A model generated the notes under the pieces. That model made no database searches and was not told the DNA's origin. It worked only from the letters and a program-made list of their open reading frames with translations. 64,000 nucleotides of DNA from Aggregicoccus sp. 17bor-14 (GTDB taxonomy: Bacteria; Myxococcota; Myxococcia; Myxococcales; Myxococcaceae), in the NCBI RefSeq assembly GCF_009659535.1, contig NZ_VJZZ01000003.1:316947-380946 (forward strand). The letters are read 5' to 3'. Every line of letters starts with the position of its first letter. The stretch's first letter is position 1. Made by a program: the position numbers and the translations under genes. This document shows, piece after piece, positions 17,904 through 61,862 of this stretch.

Positions 17904-18143
17904 TCGCTCCCGCTGGCCCGTTGAGCTCCATGGAAGGCCCGCCTGGCGTGCCTTCCATGGCGCTTCGCTTGCCGTTGCTGCTCGCGTTGGCGCTGGGGTC
18001 CCTCTCCGCACGCCAGGAGTACGCGCGGAACCGAGCGCCGGAGGGGACCGATCGGGCCGCCTGCCGGACAGGCAGGGCAACCGGGGCCCGCATGGCCTTT
18101 GTTTGCTGGAGGCGGCGGGCCTGCTCCGTTAGAAGGCGCCTGC

Positions 18144-21100
18144 ATGCTCCAGATTCCCGGTAGCCCCGCTCTCTCGTCCTTCCGCATCGACAAGCTGCTC
18201 TCGCGCCTGCAGCAGCAGGTACCGGAGGCGGGCGTGCTGGGCCTCGCCTCGCGCTACGTGCACTTCGCGGAGGTGGAGGGCGGGGACGCGGCGCTCGGCG
18301 CGCAGGAGCGCGCGCTGCTGGAGCGGCTGCTCACCTACGGCCCCCGCATGGCCGAGGAGCGCGCCGCGGCGGAGCGGGCCGAGGGCACGCTGCTGCTCGT
18401 GGTGCCGCGCTTCGGCACCATCAGCCCCTGGTCGAGCAAGGCCACGGACATCGCGCACAACACGGGCCTCACGAAGGTGCACCGGCTCGAGCGCGGGGTC
18501 GCCTACTACGTGCGCACGAAGGGGGCGCTGGGCGACGCGGCGCGCACGCGGCTCGGGGCGCTCTTGCACGACCGGATGACCGAGGCGGTGCTGCCGCGCC
18601 TGGAGGACGCCGCGGGGCTGTTCTCGCACGAGGCGCCGCGGCCCCTGCGCCACGTGGACGTGCTCGCGGGCGGCCGCAGCGCGCTCGAGCGCGCGGACAA
18701 GGAGCTGGGGCTCGCGCTCTCGGCGGACGAGCTGGACTACCTCACCCAGAACTTCACGCGCCTGAAGCGCAACCCCACGGACGTGGAGCTCATGATGTTC
18801 GCCCAGGCGAACAGCGAGCACTGCCGGCACAAGATCTTCAACGGCGAGTGGGTCATCGACGGGCAGAAGCAGGACACCAGCCTGTTCAACATGATCCGCG
18901 CCACCCACCGCGCGAACAGCGAGGGCGTGCTCAGCGCGTACCGCGACAACGCCTCGGTCATCGAGGGCAGCCGCGCGGCGCGCTTCTTCCCCCGCCCCGA
19001 GGACGGCGTGTACGCCCCGAGCGAGGAGGACGTGCACATCCTGATGAAGGTGGAGACGCACAACCATCCCACCGCCATCAGCCCCTTCGCGGGCGCCTCC
19101 ACCGGCAGCGGCGGAGAGATCCGCGACGAGGGCGCCACGGGGCGCGGCGCCAAGCCCAAGGCGGGCCTCGTGGGCTTCAGCGTCTCCAACCTGCGCGTGC
19201 CCGGTTTCGAGCAGCCCTGGGAGGTGGACCACGGCAAGCCGGGGCGCATCGCGAGCGCGCTGGACATCATGATCGAGGGCCCGCTGGGCGCGGCCGCCTT
19301 CAACAACGAGTTCGGCCGCCCCGCGCTCTGCGGCTACTTCCGCACCTACGAGCAGAAGGCGGCGCAGGGCAGTGAGGTGCGCGGCTACCACAAGCCGATC
19401 ATGATCGCCGGCGGCCTGGGCAACATCCGCGCGAGCCACGTGGAGAAGCACGACATCCCGGTGGGCGCGAAGATCGTGGTGCTCGGCGGCCCCGCCATGC
19501 TCATCGGCCTGGGCGGCGGCGCGGCCTCGTCCATGGCGAGCGGCAGCAGCCACGAGGATCTGGACTTCGCCAGCGTGCAGCGCGGCAACCCGGAGATCGA
19601 GCGGCGCGTGCAGGAGGTCATCGACCGCTGCTGGCAGCTCGGGGACAAGAACCCCATCCTCTCCATCCACGACGTGGGCGCCGGCGGCCTCTCCAACGCG
19701 GTGCCGGAGATCGTCCACGCGAGCGGGCGCGGCGGCCGCTTCGACCTGCGCAAGATCCCCAACGACGAGCCGGGCATGAGCCCGATGGAGATCTGGTGCA
19801 ACGAGGCCCAGGAGCGCTACGTGCTCGCCGTGGCCCCCGAGAGCCTGCCCACGCTCGCCGCCCTCTGCGAGCGCGAGCGCTGCCCCTACGCGGTGCTCGG
19901 CGAGGCCACGGGCGACGACACGCTCACCGTGAGCGACCCGCAGTTCGGCAACGCCCCCGTGGCCCTTCCCATGGAGGTGCTGCTGGGCAAGCCGCCCAAG
20001 ATGCTGCGCGACGTGAAGCGCGTGGCGCCCGCCGGCGACACCCTGGACACCCGCGCGCTGGACCTGAAGGACGCCGCCTACCGGCTGCTGCGCCTGCCCA
20101 CGGTCGCGGACAAGGGCTTCCTCATCACCATCGGCGACCGCACGGTGGGCGGCATGTGCAGCCGCGACCAGCTGGTGGGCCCCTGGCAGGTGCCGGTGGC
20201 GGACGTGGCCGTCACGGTGGCCGGCTACGACACCTACGCGGGCGAGGCCATGAGCATGGGCGAGCGCACGCCCGTCGCCGTGCTGGATGCGCCGGCCTCG
20301 GGGCGCATGGCCATCGGCGAGGCGCTCACCAACATCGCCGCCGCGGACATCGGGCCGCTCAAGAAAGTGCGCCTCTCGGCCAACTGGATGGCCGCCGCGG
20401 GTCACCCCGGCGAGGACGCCGCGCTCTTCGACACCGTGAAGGCCGTGGGCCCGGAGCTGTGCGCGACCCTGGGACTCACCATCCCGGTGGGCAAGGACTC
20501 GCTCTCCATGCGCACCGCGTGGGAGCAGGGCGGTGAGAAGCGCCAGGTGGTGGCGCCCCTCTCGCTCATCATCTCCGCCTTCGCCCCCGTGCGCGACGTG
20601 CGCAAGACGCTCACGCCGCAGCTGCGCACGGGCAAGGGCTTCGAGGAGACGGACCTGGTGCTGGTGGACCTCGGCGCCGGGCAGAACCGGTTGGGCGGCT
20701 CCTGCCTCGCGCAGGTGTACAACCGGCTCGGCGAGCGCGCCCCGGACGTGGACGCGCCGGCCACCCTCAAGGCCTTCTTCGACGGCGTGCAGGCGCTCGT
20801 GGCGGACGGGCTCGCGCTCGCCTACCACGACCGCTCGGACGGCGGCCTCTTCGTCACGCTCGCCGAGATGGCCTTCGCCGGCCGCTGCGGCGTGCGCGCC
20901 TCGCTCGACGGGCTGGGCGCTGACGCGGCCGCCGCCCTCTTCAGCGAGGAGCTGGGCGCGGTGATTCAAGTCCGCCGCAGCGAGCGCGCGCGCGTGCTCT
21001 CCGTGCTCGAGGGCGCGGGGCTGCGCGGGCTCGTGCACGTCATCGGCAGCGTGACCGCGGAGGACCGCGTGAGCATCAGCGCGGGCGGCAAGGAGCTGCT

Positions 21101-22064
21101 CTCCGAGAGCCGCACGCAGCTGCGCCGGGCGTGGAGCGAGACCAGCTTCCAGCTGCAGGCGCTGCGCGACAACCCCGAGTGTGCGCGCGAGGAGTTCGAG
21201 GCGAAGCTGGACCCCCAGGACCCGGGCCTCACCCCGCGCCTCACCTTCCCGCTGCAGGACACGGCCCCCGCGGTGCACACCGGCAAGGCGCGCCCGCGCG
21301 TGGCCATCCTGCGCGAGCAGGGCGTCAACAGCCAGGTGGAGACGGCGCTGACCTTCACGCGCGCCGGCTTCGAGGCCGTGGACGTGCACATGAGCGACAT
21401 CCTCGCGGGGCGCACGAAGCTCGAGGGCTTCAAGGGCCTGGTCGCCTGCGGCGGCTTCTCCTACGGCGACGTGCTGGGCGCCGGCGAGGGCTGGGCCAAG
21501 AGCGTGCTCTTCAACCCGCGCGCCCGCGACGAGTTCAGCCGCTTCTTCGCGCGCACGGACGCCTTCGCGCTCGGCGTGTGCAACGGCTGCCAGATGATGT
21601 CCGCCCTGCACGAGCTCATCCCGGGCACCCAGGGCTGGCCGCGCTTCGTGCGCAACCGCTCCGAGCAGTACGAGGCGCGCTTCAGCATGGTGCAGGTGGA
21701 GAAGAGCCCCTCGCTCTTCTTCCAGGGCATGGAGGGCAGCCACATCCCCATCGCGGTGGCTCACGGCGAGGGCTACGCGGAGTTCGCCCAGCAGGGCGGC
21801 CCCGAGGCCCTGGGCAGGGCGGGGCTCGTCTCCTTGCGCTTCGTGGACAACCGCGGCCAGGTCGCCGCGCGCTACCCCGCCAACCCCAACGGCAGCCCGC
21901 TGGGCATCACCGGCATCACCAACGCGGACGGCCGCATCACCCTCACCATGCCGCACGCCGAGCGCAGCTTCCGCACCGTCATCAACTCCTGGCACCCGGA
22001 CGAGTGGGGCGAGGACGGGCCGTGGATGCAGATGTACCGCAACGCGCGGCGCTGGGTGGGCTGA
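18144..22064 (+). CDS. purL: Phosphoribosylformylglycinamidine synthase, single-chain large PurL
   Basis: 1306 aa carrying AIRS domains and a C-terminal glutaminase domain ([15 protein letters not shown]). AGAAGG RBS precedes the ATG at 18144. Confidence 0.92.
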
Positions 22065-22085
22065 GCAGAGGGTCGGGGTGAGGGA
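22065..22085 (+). repeat. Half-copy of the same repeat (AGAGGGTCGGGGTGAGGGA) between purL and mtnN; its GAGGGA tract serves as the mtnN RBS
   Basis: 19/19 identity to the 3' arm of copy 3. Confidence 0.5.
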
Positions 22086-22841
22086 ATGACGTTCCCATCG
22101 AGCGGGCCCATCGGAATCCTCGGCGCCATGCCGGAGGAGGTCGCCCACCTCGTGGAGGAGATGGGCGCCTCGCGCCGCACGCACGAGCGCGGAGGGCGCA
22201 CCTACCACGCGGGGCGCCTCTTCGGCCGCGATGCCGTGGTGGTGTTCAGCCGCTGGGGCAAGGTGGCCGCGGCCTCCACCGCCACGCACCTGCTCGCCGA
22301 GCACGGCGTGCAGGAGCTCGTCTTCACCGGCGTTGCCGGAGGCGCGGACCCCTCCTTGCGCGTGGGCGACGTGGTGGTGGCGAGCGGCCTCGTGCAGCAC
22401 GACATGGACGCCTCTCCCCTCTTTCCCCGGCACGAGATTCCCCTGCTCGGCGTCACCCGCTTCGCCGTGCCGGAGGCCCTGCAGCAGCGCGCGCTCCAGG
22501 CCGCGCGCCGCTGGCTGCAGCGCCCCGAGGCGCTCGCGCCGGAGTTCGGCGTGACGGCGCCGCGCGCCGTGCTGGGCGAGGTGGCCAGCGGGGACAAGTT
22601 CTTCGCCCGCGCGGACGAGCTGCAGGCGGTGCGCGCGCGGCTGCCGGGGCTCGCGTGCGTGGAGATGGAGGGCGCGGCGGTGGCGCAGGTGGCGCACGAG
22701 TACGCGGTGCCGCTCACCGTCATCCGCACCCTCTCGGACGCGGCGGACGAGCACGCGCCGGTGGACTTCCTGCGCTTCGTGCAGAGCGTGGCCGCCCGCG
22801 CCTCGCACGGCATCGTGCGCGAGCTGCTGGAGCGCGCGTGA
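22086..22841 (+). CDS. mtnN: 5'-methylthioadenosine/S-adenosylhomocysteine nucleosidase
   Basis: IGILGAMPEE...VEMEGAAVAQV are MTAN signature regions. Confidence 0.85.
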   Translation: MTFPSSGPIGILGAMPEEVAHLVEEMGASRRTHERGGRTYHAGRLFGRDAVVVFSRWGKVAAASTATHLLAEHGVQELVFTGVAGGADPSLRVGDVVVASGLVQHDMDASPLFPRHEIPLLGVTRFAVPEALQQRALQAARRWLQRPEALAPEFGVTAPRAVLGEVASGDKFFARADELQAVRARLPGLACVEMEGAAVAQVAHEYAVPLTVIRTLSDAADEHAPVDFLRFVQSVAARASHGIVRELLERA

Positions 22842-46566: not shown

Positions 46567-47685
46567 TCAGGGATTGCGGTAGCAGGTGGTGTCCGCGCGC
46601 CAGTCCACGGGCGTGCCCGGCTCCACCACCTCGAAGTCCGTGACCTTCAGCGCGCTGAGCGAGCGGTTGTTCACGTTGAGCGAGGCCCACGTGTGCTGGG
46701 CGAAGCGGTCGCTCGCGAGCGTGAGCGGGAGGTTGCCGCCGTCAGAGAGGAACATGCCGTAGCGCTTGAGGGCGCGCGCGAGCACCCGGGCACCCTCGCT
46801 CGGCAGCTGCGCTTCCTCGTAGGAGGCCTTGAGCCGCAGGCGCACGCCGTACGGCGGCAGCGAGGCGCCGCCGCTCGTGGCGAAGGTGGAGTGCGTGGCA
46901 GGGGCCACGTAGATGCCGCGGCGGATGCGCTCGTTGGGGAGGATGAAGCGCAGCGCATGCCGGACCTCTCCCGCTGCGACCTCGTCCGCGGTCGCGAGCA
47001 TCGCGGTGAGCGGGAAGCCCGCGCCGTCCGCCGAGGAGCAGCCCTTGCCGCGCAGCGTGTCGCCATACGCGCGGCTGAGGTCCCACACCGCCGTGCAGCC
47101 TCCGAGGAGGCGGCCGCCGCTCAGGTCCGCGCGCCACATCTCGTAGAGCCGGTGCGCTGCCGGGTCCACGACGAGCAGGTGGCAGTCCCCGTCGCTCGTG
47201 CACGCGTAGCCGCTCTCCCCTTCCAGCGCGCCACCGCTCGGCAGCGGCACCTGCACCTCGTCGCAGTCGGGACGGTAGAACTCGGCGAGGTCCGGGTCTC
47301 CGAGCTCCGCCTGCGCCCACGCGTCGTCCTTCGGCGTGAAGCTGCGGTGCGGCGTGCTCGCGTCCGCGCGCAGCACCACGGGGCTGAAGTCGGTGCGGAA
47401 GTCCCCCGTGCCCCACCCGCCCGCGGCCTGCAGGGCGTTGATGATCGTGTCCGACTGCGCCGCCTTCGCCACGGCGCTCACGTCGCGCGTCCAGGGCATC
47501 GGCTGCGTGAAGAGCGCCGACGAGGTTCCACCCGGTGAGGGCCCACCGTCCGGTGAGCCGCCGCCCACCACGCTCCCGTCGGGCCCGCCCTCCCCGGTGT
47601 CATCCGGAGGCGGCGTCGAGCTTCCGCCACTGCAGGCGGAGCCGAGGACGAGGAGCAACAGGACAAGGAGCGCACGGACGGACAT
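46567..47685 (-). CDS. Hypothetical secreted lipoprotein (lipobox LVLGSAC) with Gly/Pro-rich linker
   Basis: Signal peptide MSVRALLVLLLLVLGSAC. The ORF may start at 47700. Confidence 0.55.
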   Translation of the reverse strand: MSVRALLVLLLLVLGSACSGGSSTPPPDDTGEGGPDGSVVGGGSPDGGPSPGGTSSALFTQPMPWTRDVSAVAKAAQSDTIINALQAAGGWGTGDFRTDFSPVVLRADASTPHRSFTPKDDAWAQAELGDPDLAEFYRPDCDEVQVPLPSGGALEGESGYACTSDGDCHLLVVDPAAHRLYEMWRADLSGGRLLGGCTAVWDLSRAYGDTLRGKGCSSADGAGFPLTAMLATADEVAAGEVRHALRFILPNERIRRGIYVAPATHSTFATSGGASLPPYGVRLRLKASYEEAQLPSEGARVLARALKRYGMFLSDGGNLPLTLASDRFAQHTWASLNVNNRSLSALKVTDFEVVEPGTPVDWRADTTCYRNP

Positions 47686-47841
47686 GCGTCGGAGAAACAC
47701 CCATCCGGCCTACCCGTGCAATCCGCAAAGGGACGGAGGGAGACCTGTCCCCGGAGGTGGCCCTCGTCCGCCTGCCCGCAGTGGGCTGCGCTCCGCACAG
47801 TGCTGCCCTAGCTTTGCAGCAAGCTCGAACGGAGGCGCACG

Positions 47842-48447
47842 ATGCTGCAGGTGAAGTACTGGGACGACTTCCTCTGACCCTGGTGCTGGGTGGCGGCCGT
47901 GCGCCGTCGACAAGTGGAGCGCGAGTTCGCAGGACAGGTGCGCTTCGAGCGGCGGGTGTACCTGCTGCTGCCCGGTGAGGGGCAGCGCCCCGTCTACGAC
48001 GACTACCTCATCCAGCACCGGCTCGCGGCGCGCTCGCGGGAGCCGTCACTCGGCTGGACCATCCCCGAGCCGGGCTTGCCCTACCCGAAGTCCAGCGTCC
48101 CGGCGCAGCTGCTCGCACTGCGGGTACAGCAGCGCACGCCGGAGCGCCTCGAGGCGCTGGAGGATGCGCTCTTTCGCGCGGTGTTCGTGGAGCTCGCGGA
48201 CGTGGCCGCGCCCGAGGTGCTGCGCCGCTGCTGCACGCAGGCCGGCGTGGACACGTCCGAGGTGGAGGCCGCGCTGCAGGACCCCGCCCTGCGCGAGCAG
48301 GCCTTCGCCGAGCACGCGGAGTCCCAGGCGCACTTCATCCAGGGCATCCCGGCGCTGCTGCTGCCCGGGATGCGACCCATCACCGGCGCCGTCGACACCG
48401 AGGTCTACCGCCAGGCGCTGCGCTTCGCGCTCTCCGCCCGGCGATGA
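47842..48447 (+). CDS. Candidate selenoprotein: DsbA/FrnE-like thiol:disulfide oxidoreductase with in-frame TGA (Sec) at 47875..47877, replacing the first Cys of the CxxC motif (U-P-W-C)
   Basis: GGAGG RBS then ATG at 47842. The reading is MLQVKYWDDFL-TGA-PWCWVAAVRRRQ..., continuing in the same frame into ORF 47890..48447. DsbA (PF01323)-like context: YxDFxCPWC and a cis-Pro region GIPALL. A hairpin follows the TGA. Confidence 0.6.
47891..47909 (+). promoter_or_regulatory. Candidate bacterial SECIS-like stem-loop (UGGCGGC-CGUGC-GCCGUCG) beginning 13 nt after the UGA
   Basis: A 7-bp stem (one G.U pair) with a 5-nt GU-containing loop, read from the sequence. Position relative to the UGA is as expected for bacterial SECIS elements. 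Confidence 0.3.
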
Positions 48448-48472: not shown

Positions 48473-49585
48473 CTATCGGGCGCTGCGGGCCGACGCCGTG
48501 GCCGGGTCCGGCACGAGCTCGGCCAAGCGCTGAGACTCCTCCGCGGCCTTCCCCACCGCACGCCACCACGGCGTGGGACCGTCCAGCTGCGCGGGCTCGA
48601 AGGGCCGGCCCAGCAGCGGAGTGAGCACACGCGCGCGCTGCTGCTCGGCCAGCGCGAGCAGCTGCTCGGCAGGTTCGGCCCACGGGTGCAGGCCGAGGTC
48701 GAAGGTGCCCCAGTGCACGGGCAGCAGCGTGCCGCCGCCGAGCATCTCGAAGGCCTTCAGCGCGTTCTCCGGTCCCAGGTGGATGTCGCCCCACGCCGGG
48801 TGCCAGGCGCCGATCTCCAGCATCGTCACCTCGAAAGGGCCGAGGCGCTCGCGGATGGTCTTGAACTCCTCGGTGAGCCCGGTGTCCCCGCTGAAGAAGA
48901 GCTGGCGCTTCGCCGTCTTGAGCACCCAGCTGCTCCACAGCGTGCTGTTTCGGTCCCCGAGGCCGCGGCCCGAGAAGTGCTGCGCGGGGGTCGCGGTGAA
49001 CGAGAGCCCGCCGCCGGGCAGCGTGTGCTCCTCCCACCAATCCAGCTCGGTGATGTTGCCGGGCTCCACGCCGAAACGCTCCAGGTGCGCGCCCACGCCG
49101 AGCGACGTCACGATGGGGACCCGCATGCGCGCGAGGGTGCGGATGCTCTCGCGGCACAGGTGGTCGAAGTGGTCGTGCGAGAGCAGCACCGCATCCAGCT
49201 TCGGCAGCTGCGCTAGCGTGGCGGGCACCTCGTGGAAGCGCTTGGGCCCCGCGAAGGTGAAGGGTGAGGCGCGCTCGCCGAAGACGGGGTCGGTGAGCAC
49301 CCGCACCCCGTCCACCTCGATGAGCAGCGTGCTGTGCCCCAGCCAGGTGATGCGCAGGCCCGAGGAGGACACGGGCTTCGTCCACGCCTCGAGCGGGCTC
49401 TCCACGTGCAAGGGCCCGGGAGGCAGGCGGCTCTTTCCACCGAAGAAGAACTCCCCCATCACGGAGAGCGAGGAGCTGTCCTTCTTGAGACCCGGCCCCA
49501 CGCCGGAGGTGTTGCGGAAGGTCCCATCGCGCCACTGCCGCGAGGCCTGTGAGCGCTCGCGGCGCAGTCCAGAGAGCGAAGCCAT
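48473..49585 (-). CDS. MBL-fold metallo-hydrolase (NAPE-PLD-like Zn-dependent hydrolase)
   Basis: ITWLGHSTLLIE...LTDPVF...LSHDHFDHL...LPVHWGTF. ATG at 49585 overlaps the tetR stop by 1 nt. Confidence 0.75.
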   Translation of the reverse strand: MASLSGLRRERSQASRQWRDGTFRNTSGVGPGLKKDSSSLSVMGEFFFGGKSRLPPGPLHVESPLEAWTKPVSSSGLRITWLGHSTLLIEVDGVRVLTDPVFGERASPFTFAGPKRFHEVPATLAQLPKLDAVLLSHDHFDHLCRESIRTLARMRVPIVTSLGVGAHLERFGVEPGNITELDWWEEHTLPGGGLSFTATPAQHFSGRGLGDRNSTLWSSWVLKTAKRQLFFSGDTGLTEEFKTIRERLGPFEVTMLEIGAWHPAWGDIHLGPENALKAFEMLGGGTLLPVHWGTFDLGLHPWAEPAEQLLALAEQQRARVLTPLLGRPFEPAQLDGPTPWWRAVGKAAEESQRLAELVPDPATASARSAR

Positions 49586-50121
49586 CAGACGAACCTCTCC
49601 ACGAGCACCTGCAGCCGCCGGCGCAGCACCCGCGCCGAGGGCAAGTCCACTCCCAGTCCATCCACTGCCAGCATGAAGACCTCGCTGAGCTCCTTGGAGC
49701 CGAGCACCGCCTGCGTGTACTTGAGCCGCAGCCGCTCGTGCTTCGCCTCGACCTCCGGCAGCACCTTCGAGCAGGCCTCGTAGAACTCGGCGGCCATCGG
49801 CGCGCCCTCCAGCATCTCCCACGGCTCCATCAGCAGATGCTCGTACACCCCGAGGAGTTTCTCGCGCGGGCTGCCCCGCCCCGCGAGCACCTGCTCCACG
49901 CGCGGGTAGAGCGCCTCGAGCAGCTGCTCGTACACCGCGGTGAACACGTCCTCCTTGTTCTTGAACTTCCGGTAGATGAGTGGCCGCGAGATGCCCGCGC
50001 GCTTCGCGATGTCGTCCAGGGACGTCTTCGCGTAGCCGAACTGGAGGAAGCACTGGCGCGCCGCCTCGACGATCTCCCGGCGGCGCTCCGCGTCGCGCGC
50101 CTCGCTGGATCCATCTGCCAT
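49585..50121 (-). CDS. TetR-family transcriptional regulator
   Basis: N-terminal HTH (IVEAARQCFLQFGYAKTSLDDIAKRAGISRPLIYRKFKNKE). ATG at 50121. Confidence 0.8.
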   Translation of the reverse strand: MADGSSEARDAERRREIVEAARQCFLQFGYAKTSLDDIAKRAGISRPLIYRKFKNKEDVFTAVYEQLLEALYPRVEQVLAGRGSPREKLLGVYEHLLMEPWEMLEGAPMAAEFYEACSKVLPEVEAKHERLRLKYTQAVLGSKELSEVFMLAVDGLGVDLPSARVLRRRLQVLVERFV

Positions 50122-50204
50122 GCGGACACATTGACAGCCGATACCCATTTTGTCAACTTGTCCAGCCGGCGCCACCCGGGTTGCGCCAGGGGAGCGAGGC
50201 GCGC

Positions 50205-51380
50205 GTGAGGGCAGAGACGAAGCGGGGCTGGGCGCGCATCGCCTGGGGCGCGGGTGCCCTGCTGGGGCTCACCCTCGTCGCCGTCGCGGCGAGCGCCTGC
50301 ACGGCGATGGGCAAGGGGGCGAGCGGCGAGCGGCTCGCGCGCATGCAGCACTCCCCGCACTGGCGCGACGGGCACTTCGAGAACCCCGAGCCCCTGGTCA
50401 ACGACGTCTGGGGCTCCCTCACGACGATGCTGCAGGCGAGCCGGGACGTGAGCCTCTCGGGTCCCGTGCCCGTGGTGCAGGGCACGCGCGAGCGCTTCGA
50501 CACGCCTCCCCTCACCGGCCTGCGCGTCACCTGGCTCGGCCACTCCTCCACCCTGGTGGAGCTGGACGGCTACCGCATCCTCACCGACCCCGTGTGGAGC
50601 GAGCGCGCCTCGCCGCTCTCCTGGGTGGGGCCGCGGCGCTGGTTCGCGCCGCCCATTCCCCTCGCGGAGCTCCCGCACGTGGACGTGGTGGTCATCTCGC
50701 ACGACCACTATGACCACCTCGACTACCCCACGCTCGAGGCGATGAAGGACTGGGACACCACCTTCGTGGTGCCGCTCGGCGTGGGGGCGCACCTCGCGGC
50801 GTGGGGCGTGCCGGAAGCGCACATCGTGGAGCTGGACTGGTGGGAGCGCACGCGGGTGCGCGGGTTGGAGATCGTGGCCACGCCCGCCCGCCACGCCTCG
50901 GGGCGCACGGGCCTGGACAAGGACCGCACCCTCTGGGCGGGCTACGCGCTCGTGGGTCCCCAGCACCGCGCCTTCTACTCGGGGGACACCGGGCTCTTCC
51001 CCGCGATGCGCGACATCGGCGAGCGGCTCGGGCCCTTCGATCTCACGCTCATCGAGGTGGGCCAGTACAACCGCGCGTGGCCGGACTGGCACATCGGCCC
51101 CGAGCAGGCGGTGCAGGCGCACCAGCAGCTGCGCGGCCGCGTCCTGCTCCCGGTGCACTGGGGCCTCTTCGCGCTCGCCGCGCACGGGTGGACCGAGCCC
51201 ATCGAGCGCGTGCTCGCCGCGGCGCACCGGAGCGGTCAGCGGGTGCTCGTGCCCAGGCCCGGCCAGAGCGTGGAGCCTGCCGCCCCGCCGCCCTTCGAGC
51301 GCTGGTGGCCCCGGCTCCCGTTCAAGACGGCGCAGCAGGACCCCATCGTCTCCACCCAGCTGGGCGCGCCGTCGCCGTGA
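50205..51380 (+). CDS. MBL-fold metallo-hydrolase lipoprotein, paralogue of 48473..49585
   Basis: Same motif series (VTWLGHSSTLVE...ISHDHYDHL...LPVHWGLF). GTG at 50205 gives a signal/lipobox LVAVAASAC. Divergent from tetR. Confidence 0.75.
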   Translation: MRAETKRGWARIAWGAGALLGLTLVAVAASACTAMGKGASGERLARMQHSPHWRDGHFENPEPLVNDVWGSLTTMLQASRDVSLSGPVPVVQGTRERFDTPPLTGLRVTWLGHSSTLVELDGYRILTDPVWSERASPLSWVGPRRWFAPPIPLAELPHVDVVVISHDHYDHLDYPTLEAMKDWDTTFVVPLGVGAHLAAWGVPEAHIVELDWWERTRVRGLEIVATPARHASGRTGLDKDRTLWAGYALVGPQHRAFYSGDTGLFPAMRDIGERLGPFDLTLIEVGQYNRAWPDWHIGPEQAVQAHQQLRGRVLLPVHWGLFALAAHGWTEPIERVLAAAHRSGQRVLVPRPGQSVEPAAPPPFERWWPRLPFKTAQQDPIVSTQLGAPSP

Positions 51381-60977: not shown

Positions 60978-61862
60978 ATGAGTGACAACACGAAGATCGA
61001 GTGGACGGACGCGACGTGGAACCCGGTGCGGGGGTGCACGAAGATCACGCCCGGCTGCAAGCACTGCTACGCGGAGACCTTCGCGGAGCGCTTCCGGGGC
61101 GTGCCGGGCCACCCGTACACGCAGGGCTTCGACCTGAAGCTCATCCCCGAGAAGCTCGCAGACCCCTTCCGCTGGCCGAAGCCGCGCCGCGTCTTCGTCA
61201 ACTCGATGAGCGACCTGTTCCACGCGGACATCCCGGACGACTACATCGTCGAGGTGGTGCGCGTGATGGCGCGCGCCAACTGGCACACCTACCAGTTGCT
61301 GACGAAGCGCTCGGAGCGCATGCGCGACCTGCTGCGCACGAAGCTGCAGGACGTGGCGCAGGCGCCGCACATCTGGTGGGGCGTGAGCGTGGAGGACCGC
61401 AAGTGGGGCGTGCCGCGCATCGCCCATTTGCGTGACGCCCCGGCGCGCACGCGCTTCCTCTCGGTGGAGCCGCTGCTCGAGGACCTCGGGACGCTGGACC
61501 TCACCGGCATCCACTGGATGATCGTGGGCGGCGAGAGCGGCCACGGCGCGAGGCCCCTGGGCCCGGACTGGGTGCGCTCCTTGCGCGACCAGTGCGTGGC
61601 GAGCGGCACGGACTTCTTCTTCAAGCAGTGGGGCGGCGTGCGCAAGGGCGTGGCGGGGCGCGAGCTGGACGGGCGCACCCACGACGCGCAGCCGCGGCTC
61701 GAGCCCGGCCCCTTCCCAGACCGCGCCACCCGCAAGCGGCTCGAACAGGAGACGGATGCCGCCGCCGCGCCCTGGCTCGCGGGCCCCACCCTGCTCTGGG
61801 GCCACGCCTCCGGCGGACGGGCGCCGCCACTTTCGCTCGACAGCCCGCCCGGCGCTTCTTAA
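60978..61862 (+). CDS. Phage Gp37/Gp68-family protein (DUF5131), Cys motif GC-x7-GC-x2-CYA
   Basis: EWTDATWNPVRGCTKITPGCKHCYAE N-terminal signature of the family. A chromosomal copy with no other phage genes nearby. Confidence 0.65.
   Translation: MSDNTKIEWTDATWNPVRGCTKITPGCKHCYAETFAERFRGVPGHPYTQGFDLKLIPEKLADPFRWPKPRRVFVNSMSDLFHADIPDDYIVEVVRVMARANWHTYQLLTKRSERMRDLLRTKLQDVAQAPHIWWGVSVEDRKWGVPRIAHLRDAPARTRFLSVEPLLEDLGTLDLTGIHWMIVGGESGHGARPLGPDWVRSLRDQCVASGTDFFFKQWGGVRKGVAGRELDGRTHDAQPRLEPGPFPDRATRKRLEQETDAAAAPWLAGPTLLWGHASGGRAPPLSLDSPPGAS

Follow-up and report, generated by a model that had tools for sequence, protein, structure and literature searches.

The 64,000-nucleotide stretch of DNA analysed here (the window) very probably carries, at 47842-48447 on the forward strand, a real and misannotated selenoprotein gene whose product is DsbA/FrnE-like. 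The gene belongs to a narrow clade from soil Myxococcota and related MAGs, and all clade members known as DNA have an in-frame TGA at the same active-site position. The clade is systematically misannotated, and 57 of the 59 close homologues are cut at the N-terminus.

Gene layout and reading frame

The frame spans 201 codons, counting the TGA, from ATG 47842 to the stop TGA at 48445-48447 on the forward strand. It is otherwise intact over this length, and its sole in-frame TGA is at 47875-47877. Eleven codons (MLQVKYWDDFL) come before this TGA, and PWCWVAAVRRRQ / PWCWVAAVRRRQVEREF follows it in the same frame. The coding sequence after the TGA (47878..48447) has a GC3 of 0.93. The features referred to below are as follows; all are on the forward strand.

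47831..47835 (+): Shine-Dalgarno-like GGAGG, 6 nt before the ATG, read from the sequence
47842..47874 (+): codons 1-11 from the ATG, MLQVKYWDDFL, encoding beta-strand 1, which leads to the active site; the clade consensus is MLRVRYWDDFL
47875..47877 (+): predicted selenocysteine (Sec) codon TGA, residue 12, which opens U-P-W-C (47875-47886); TGA in 76/76 loci
47878..48447 (+): remaining coding sequence, residues 13-201, and the stop TGA 48445-48447; Pfam DSBA PF01323
47891..47909 (+): predicted bacterial SECIS hairpin, U-GGCGGC / CGUGC / GCCGUC-G, within codons 17-23 (V-A-A-V-R-R-R)
47899..47901 (+): GTG used as the start in the public annotation, where the protein (P0001) begins MRRRQVEREF; here it is Val20 in the hairpin loop
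48343-48351 (+): predicted cis-Pro loop G168-I-P170, aligned with GVP of FrnE/SCO1869

An earlier note on this DNA had described the ATG, the GGAGG, the in-frame TGA and the continuation to 48447, and all four are located as it claimed. It had also described the gene as split by the ORF track, and the mechanical ORF list indeed gives 47890..48447 alone. The GGAGG is not conserved as such elsewhere; many of the other loci instead follow an upstream gene.

Scanned in all six frames for single TGAs with high-GC3 coding flanks on both sides, the 64-kb window gave only this site and one other, at 22062. The TGA at 22062-22064 lies between two same-frame ORFs (17925-22064 and 22065-22841), both of high GC3. 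The sequence around it, ARRWVG*AEGRGE, contains no Cys-containing motif, and the site looks like two neighbouring genes. Genome-wide reassignment of TGA was also considered and ruled out, since TGA ends 26 of the 37 high-GC3 ORFs in the window, as in the standard code.

Protein family and active site

For the profile and homologue comparisons of the protein, Cys was put in place of the TGA. The Cys-substituted protein matches the Pfam family DSBA (PF01323) with E=3.5e-17 and 63.3 bits (gathering cut-off 25.6). In this alignment residues 3-193 correspond to profile positions 1-190 of 191, straight through the TGA. In NCBIfam, no specific model for the protein was found. The top solved relatives in the PDB are SCO1869 (3gl5, E=2.3e-12) and Deinococcus FrnE (5cnw, E=1.9e-7).

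The first strand of the window protein is aligned with ‘rVeiWsDiaC’ of SCO1869 and FrnE, and Y-W-D-D-F-L-U-P-W-C-W with W-s-D-i-a-C-P-W-C-Y of the same two proteins. U12-P-W-C15 corresponds column for column to C-P-W-C in 3gl5, in 5cnw and in the distant full-length matches P0060-P0068, all of which have CPWC. The proposal that homologues align across the TGA is therefore borne out, both by the full-length Pfam alignment and by the first Cys of CPWC in FrnE, SCO1869 and P0060-P0068, which falls on the TGA. Further along, G168-I-P170 is aligned with G-V-P of FrnE and SCO1869, and in alignment A1 the conservation of G168 and of P170 is 90% or more.

JGI names the homologues ‘predicted DsbA family dithiol-disulfide isomerase’. 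The protein is taken to have no signal peptide because it begins at beta-strand 1. Judged from its sequence, it is a cytoplasmic FrnE-like protein of the COG2761 branch of the DsbA family, and its alignment to the solved structures predicts a thioredoxin fold with an inserted helical domain.

Homologues and conservation of the TGA codon

A search of 5.8 billion proteins gave 68 homologues. The top match (P0001, 99% identity, 182 aa) is recorded as ‘DsbA family protein [Simulacricoccus sp. 17bor-14]’. It starts with MRRRQ, which corresponds to GTG 47899, and is otherwise identical to the window protein across the N-terminal 60 residues compared. The close homologues (52-99% identity) start past the TGA position with two exceptions, P0019 and P0058. 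The latter is a fragment. P0019 (60% identity, known as protein only) has its N-terminus present and carries Cys at the Sec position (MLRVRYWDDSLCPWCY); this Cys is either a real Sec-to-Cys reversion or an artefact of TGA translation in its source record. The expectation that such a gene is easily missed by automated annotation is thus confirmed by the public record itself, together with the other close homologues that start downstream of the UGA.

At the DNA level, the sequence M..VRYWDDFL-TGA-PWC[YW] is found in frame in 57 of the 61 metagenome loci, and a further metagenome locus (L055, 45% identity) reads VFSDTL-TGA-PWCY. Three of the 61 begin downstream of the TGA site and were left out of the TGA count. 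In a scan of 185,579 species genomes, the TGA was present in nine of nine MAG loci, the hosts being soil MAGs labelled Myxococcales, Deltaproteobacteria or Planctomycetota. It is also present in the three nearest relatives of the window (L073-L075) and in five loci with a Thr19 variant (L076-L080). In total, with the window included, TGA is found in 76 of 76 readable loci (57 metagenome loci, L055, 9 MAG loci, 3 nearest relatives, 5 variants and the window), and TGC or TGT in none. Protein identity across these loci is about 45-87%.

The clade is rare, with 9 of the 185,579 species representatives, and Anaeromyxobacter is not among them. It has conserved motifs of its own, LLLPGEGQRP and YPxSS. 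Two MAGs labelled Planctomycetota, L063 (JBCCGH010000018.1) and L070 (CAZMSZ010000207.1), carry the same Sec gene and hairpin with 57-62% identity to the window; their labels could be explained by mis-binning, mislabelling or horizontal transfer.

Selection can be seen on both sides of the TGA. All 32 differences counted in codons 6-11 (YWDDFL) across 47 distinct sequences are synonymous, with 0 nonsynonymous, and therefore the upstream peptide is translated in this frame and selected. When the window gene is compared with that of L075 (86% identity), dN/dS is 0.23 with dS 0.39, which argues against decay in the window's lineage.

Predicted SECIS hairpin

The predicted hairpin consists of the stem GGCGGC (47892-47897), the loop CGUGC (47898-47902) and the returning strand GCCGUC (47903-47908), closed by the wobble pair U47891-G47909. 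The earlier note had placed a 7-bp stem at the distance expected for a SECIS element, and the stem is upheld: it has 7 bp, begins 13-14 nt after the UGA and is conserved in the clade, where its synonymous sites are frozen and one of its pairs covaries. All clade members keep the hairpin, usually in the form GGCGGC / CGGGC / GCCGCC. The loop CGUGC, in which Gly20 has changed to Val, is common to the window and L073-L075, and the G-U wobble (CGC to CGT) is common to the window and L075. In L055 a hairpin of other sequence is found in the same place (GGCG-GUG-CGCC, with a lower stem of 4 bp and a bulged U).

The nucleotides past the TGA are conserved well beyond the need of the protein. In a set of 45 distinct complete genes, the codon for Ala18 is GCG in 45/45, that for Ala19 GCC in 44/44, that for Gly20 GGG in 44/44 and that for Arg21 CGC in 43/45. 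Expressed as the ratio of observed to expected synonymous entropy in 5-codon windows, synonymous variation drops to 0.14 at codons 18-22, compared with an average of 0.81 over the gene; elsewhere the lowest value is 0.35.

Pairing is also maintained where the sequence varies. For a stem of eight pairs, 89.8% of cells are paired; sliding the partners by 1-3 columns lowers the figure to 22-82%. Columns 25 and 33 of alignment A2 hold G-C in most sequences (30 of 32 in one alignment), G-U in three loci and also A-U, and never a mismatch. In the variants with Thr19 (ACC), codon 21 ends in U in 5 of 5 distinct sequences, as predicted beforehand; in one of them, L079, codon 21 is now GGT (Gly), with the pairing U retained. 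The covariation is that of one pair, probably from one or two evolutionary events.

In contrast to the sequence conservation, folding stability is uninformative because the coding sequence is 73% GC, and conservation is therefore relied on. Compared with shuffles, the hairpin shows no excess stability (z = 0.26). Compared with 2000 synonymous recodings per sequence, the native sequences are not more stable, and that of the window is weaker than 98% of its recodings. For the 42 nt after the TGA (47878-47919), the window has -13.6 kcal/mol and the recodings a mean of -19.9 kcal/mol; in L008, L013, L073 and others, the stability of the same region is likewise below or equal to that of the synonymous recodings. 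What appears to be selected is a single small hairpin of specific form, perhaps together with the avoidance of rival structures.

ViennaRNA gives the hairpin a pair probability of 0.35, versus 0.04 for an alternative fold. This alternative, from RNAalifold, has a longer stem (A2 columns 10-16/29-35) and is regarded as the less probable model, given its low pair probability and the break of one of its pairs in the window; the sequences are too nearly invariant to decide formally between the two. A 17-nt hairpin motif with at most one mismatch is expected about once per window, and a second match, at 61812, has no TGA before it and was set aside as being at chance level. The significance of the hairpin thus comes from the comparison with other loci, since taken alone it is at chance level. 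In Rfam, neither a SECIS nor any other family was matched at gathering or permissive thresholds. The element is presented as a predicted SECIS because of its position, the frozen synonymous sites and the limited covariation.

Proposed mechanism

Translation must begin at ATG 47842, since purifying selection acts at the protein level on the 11 codons before the TGA. Going by the established bacterial Sec pathway, the hairpin at 47891-47909 would recruit SelB with Sec-tRNA(Sec) to the UGA at 47875, and Sec would be inserted there instead of termination. Family membership suggests that the U12-P-W-C15 Sec/Cys pair would then lie at the N-terminus of helix 1 in the thioredoxin fold, facing the cis-Pro loop, and that disulfides may be reduced or isomerised with Sec as the attacking nucleophile.

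Alternative explanations

The gene could be a pseudogene, that is, a DsbA/FrnE-like gene killed by a TGC-to-TGA nonsense change at the active-site Cys codon. TGC and TGA are only one base apart, and no Sec machinery was seen in the window or the fetched flanks (see below). A dead gene, however, would not be expected to share its TGA with all 76 readable loci at such divergence, to show purifying selection before and after the TGA or to keep 201 codons otherwise intact; the clade-wide conservation effectively refutes this reading, and we regard it as extremely improbable. If the TGA were instead a true stop, the product would start from GTG 47890 or 47899, and the 11-codon ORF would be a separate leader peptide or a regulatory upstream ORF. 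NCBI and other pipelines annotate the gene in this way (P0001 and 56 others), and there is an in-frame GTG shortly past the TGA. The shortened protein, however, would be left without beta-strand 1 and the attacking residue of CxxC, and from 47899 without the whole motif, whereas the Pfam and PDB alignments continue unbroken through the TGA. YWDDFL matches the conserved W-x-D-x-x-C strand of the Cys homologues, for which a leader peptide offers no reason, and codon 17, GTG in the window, is GTC, GCG or GCC in many clade members and so is not a conserved start. A true stop is accordingly very improbable.

The remaining explanation keeps the long frame but not the Sec: the UGA would be read through by near-cognate Trp or Cys insertion, or by leaky suppression after loss of Sec decoding, and the downstream element would serve some other purpose. 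The unremarkable stability of the hairpin would fit with this. On the other side, the position is that of the catalytic Cys of CxxC, a classic site of Sec/Cys exchange, in a family that is catalogued among UXXC selenoproteins; the hairpin is at the canonical SECIS distance with the G/U of its loop conserved, and relatives within the Myxococcaceae use Sec. The yield of leaky read-through would also be low, so that mutation to TGC would be strongly favoured, yet it is seen in 0 of the 76 loci. We consider read-through of this kind very unlikely and prefer insertion of Sec at the UGA.

Selenocysteine use in relatives and gene neighbourhood

With E. coli queries, tblastn found no SelA, SelB or SelD in the window or in the fetched flanks of the loci, and ARAGORN found no tRNA in the window and no tRNA-Sec near the gene in 16 loci. 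Simulacricoccus is a member of the Myxococcaceae, and all sampled genomes of this family are listed as Sec-using (PMC5029168 Table S2). The selenoprotein counts given for Sec-using species are 2 for Myxococcus xanthus, 3 for M. fulvus, 2 for M. stipitatus, 3 for Corallococcus coralloides, 1 for Cystobacter fuscus, 1 for Stigmatella aurantiaca and 10-12 for Anaeromyxobacter (PMC5029168 Table S2).

The neighbours of the gene in the window are a RibD_C reductase, an unassigned ORF, two MBL-fold proteins and a Zn-ADH. No recurrence of these neighbours was found at the other loci, and the context in the window therefore gives no functional clue. The unassigned ORF, at 46567-47700 on the reverse strand, is divergent from the selenoprotein gene and has 377 aa and high GC3. 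In Pfam and NCBIfam it matches no family, apart from a sub-threshold ‘lipo-invert tail’ match, and the other loci contain nothing that corresponds to it. The selenoprotein gene is followed directly by the MBL-fold (Lactamase_B_2) paralogues, at 48473-50131 on the reverse strand and 49980-51380 on the forward strand; they are divergently oriented and 42-44% identical, and their maximal ORFs, on opposite strands, have ~150 nt in common.

At 36 loci, a class-I SAM methyltransferase gene is present upstream of the Sec-DsbA gene (for example L019:1343-2665; also L013, L024, L030 and L035). Its product matches Methyltransf_11 with E=3.9e-19 and has an N-terminal zinc-ribbon-like CPRC...CASC; the gene is on the same strand, with its end 27-47 nt ahead of the TGA. 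The two genes probably form an operon at these loci; the window's locus lacks the methyltransferase gene.

These observations can be taken further, to a distinct, obligately Sec-dependent FrnE-like sub-family of soil Myxococcota and their relatives that would stand apart from the catalogued DsbA-like one. Its members might partner the upstream methyltransferase, for instance in methylation and detoxification of selenium, arsenic or thiols, and a DsbA-like selenoprotein would become open to study in a cultured host for the first time, in Simulacricoccus. We put this forward as a speculative and rather unlikely extension of the selenoprotein assignment.

Significance

The main value of the result is the correction of annotation, in a selenoprotein family that has been known since 2005. 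Existing records show a DsbA-like protein without the attacking residue of its active site, and their users would misjudge the protein. The clade is also a clean case of an RNA signal (the predicted SECIS) overprinted on codons, with three fourfold-degenerate codons fixed across ~45 genes. The source is apparently Simulacricoccus sp. 17bor-14; if it is indeed a cultured strain, it would provide a tractable host for studying the function of DsbA/FrnE-like selenoproteins, a family so far known from computation only. Knowledge of selenoprotein families and of Sec decoding is unchanged, and the finding would not surprise a specialist.

Comparison with known systems

A SECIS of the E. coli fdhF type is a stem-loop that follows the UGA directly and is itself part of the coding sequence. 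The predicted hairpin resembles bacterial SECIS elements (fdhF, and the bSECIS model of Zhang and Gladyshev) in starting 13-14 nt past the UGA and in its small apical loop, which has a G (GU in the window) and is ~21-25 nt away from the UGA; L055 adds a bulged U. Unlike the fdhF type, it has a short, near-pure G-C stem of 6-8 bp and the pentaloop CG(G/U)GC, and in the window there is no bulged U.

FrnE from Deinococcus radiodurans (5cnw) and SCO1869 from Streptomyces coelicolor (3gl5) are cytoplasmic disulfide isomerases/oxidoreductases of the DsbA family. The window protein is like them in aligning over its full length, in beginning without a signal peptide, and in its N-terminal W-x-D-x-x-C-P-W-C-[YW]-[VI] pattern (with predicted Sec for the first Cys), its G-[IV]-P loop and its predicted inserted helical domain. 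Unlike the window protein, both use Cys, and the identity is only about 25-30%. FrnE is also longer, 260 aa with a C-terminal extension versus 201 in the window protein.

The closest known system is the family of DsbA-like selenoproteins, with the same Pfam family and COG, a UxxC motif in which Sec replaces the first Cys, and a SECIS directly past the UGA. The earlier note had regarded this family as already established, and the literature agrees. It was described in 2005 from the Sargasso Sea as a DsbA-like protein, COG2761, with UXXC (Zhang et al., PMC1088965), and reports from Deltaproteobacteria include one of 2006 for the myxobacterium Anaeromyxobacter dehalogenans; the same paper also lists Desulfovibrio desulfuricans and Desulfotomaculum reducens (PMC1794560). 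By 2016, DsbA-like selenoproteins were counted in 41 organisms (PMC5029168). A 2026 review has the entry ‘DsbA-like protein form 1, PF01323, UxxC’, describes such families as functionally uncharacterised and states that nearly all of them are known from bioinformatics alone (PMC13188914). The window gene is likened to the published DsbA-like selenoproteins by family, COG and motif; the genome scan found no member of the clade in Anaeromyxobacter, and the clade may be a separate sub-family.
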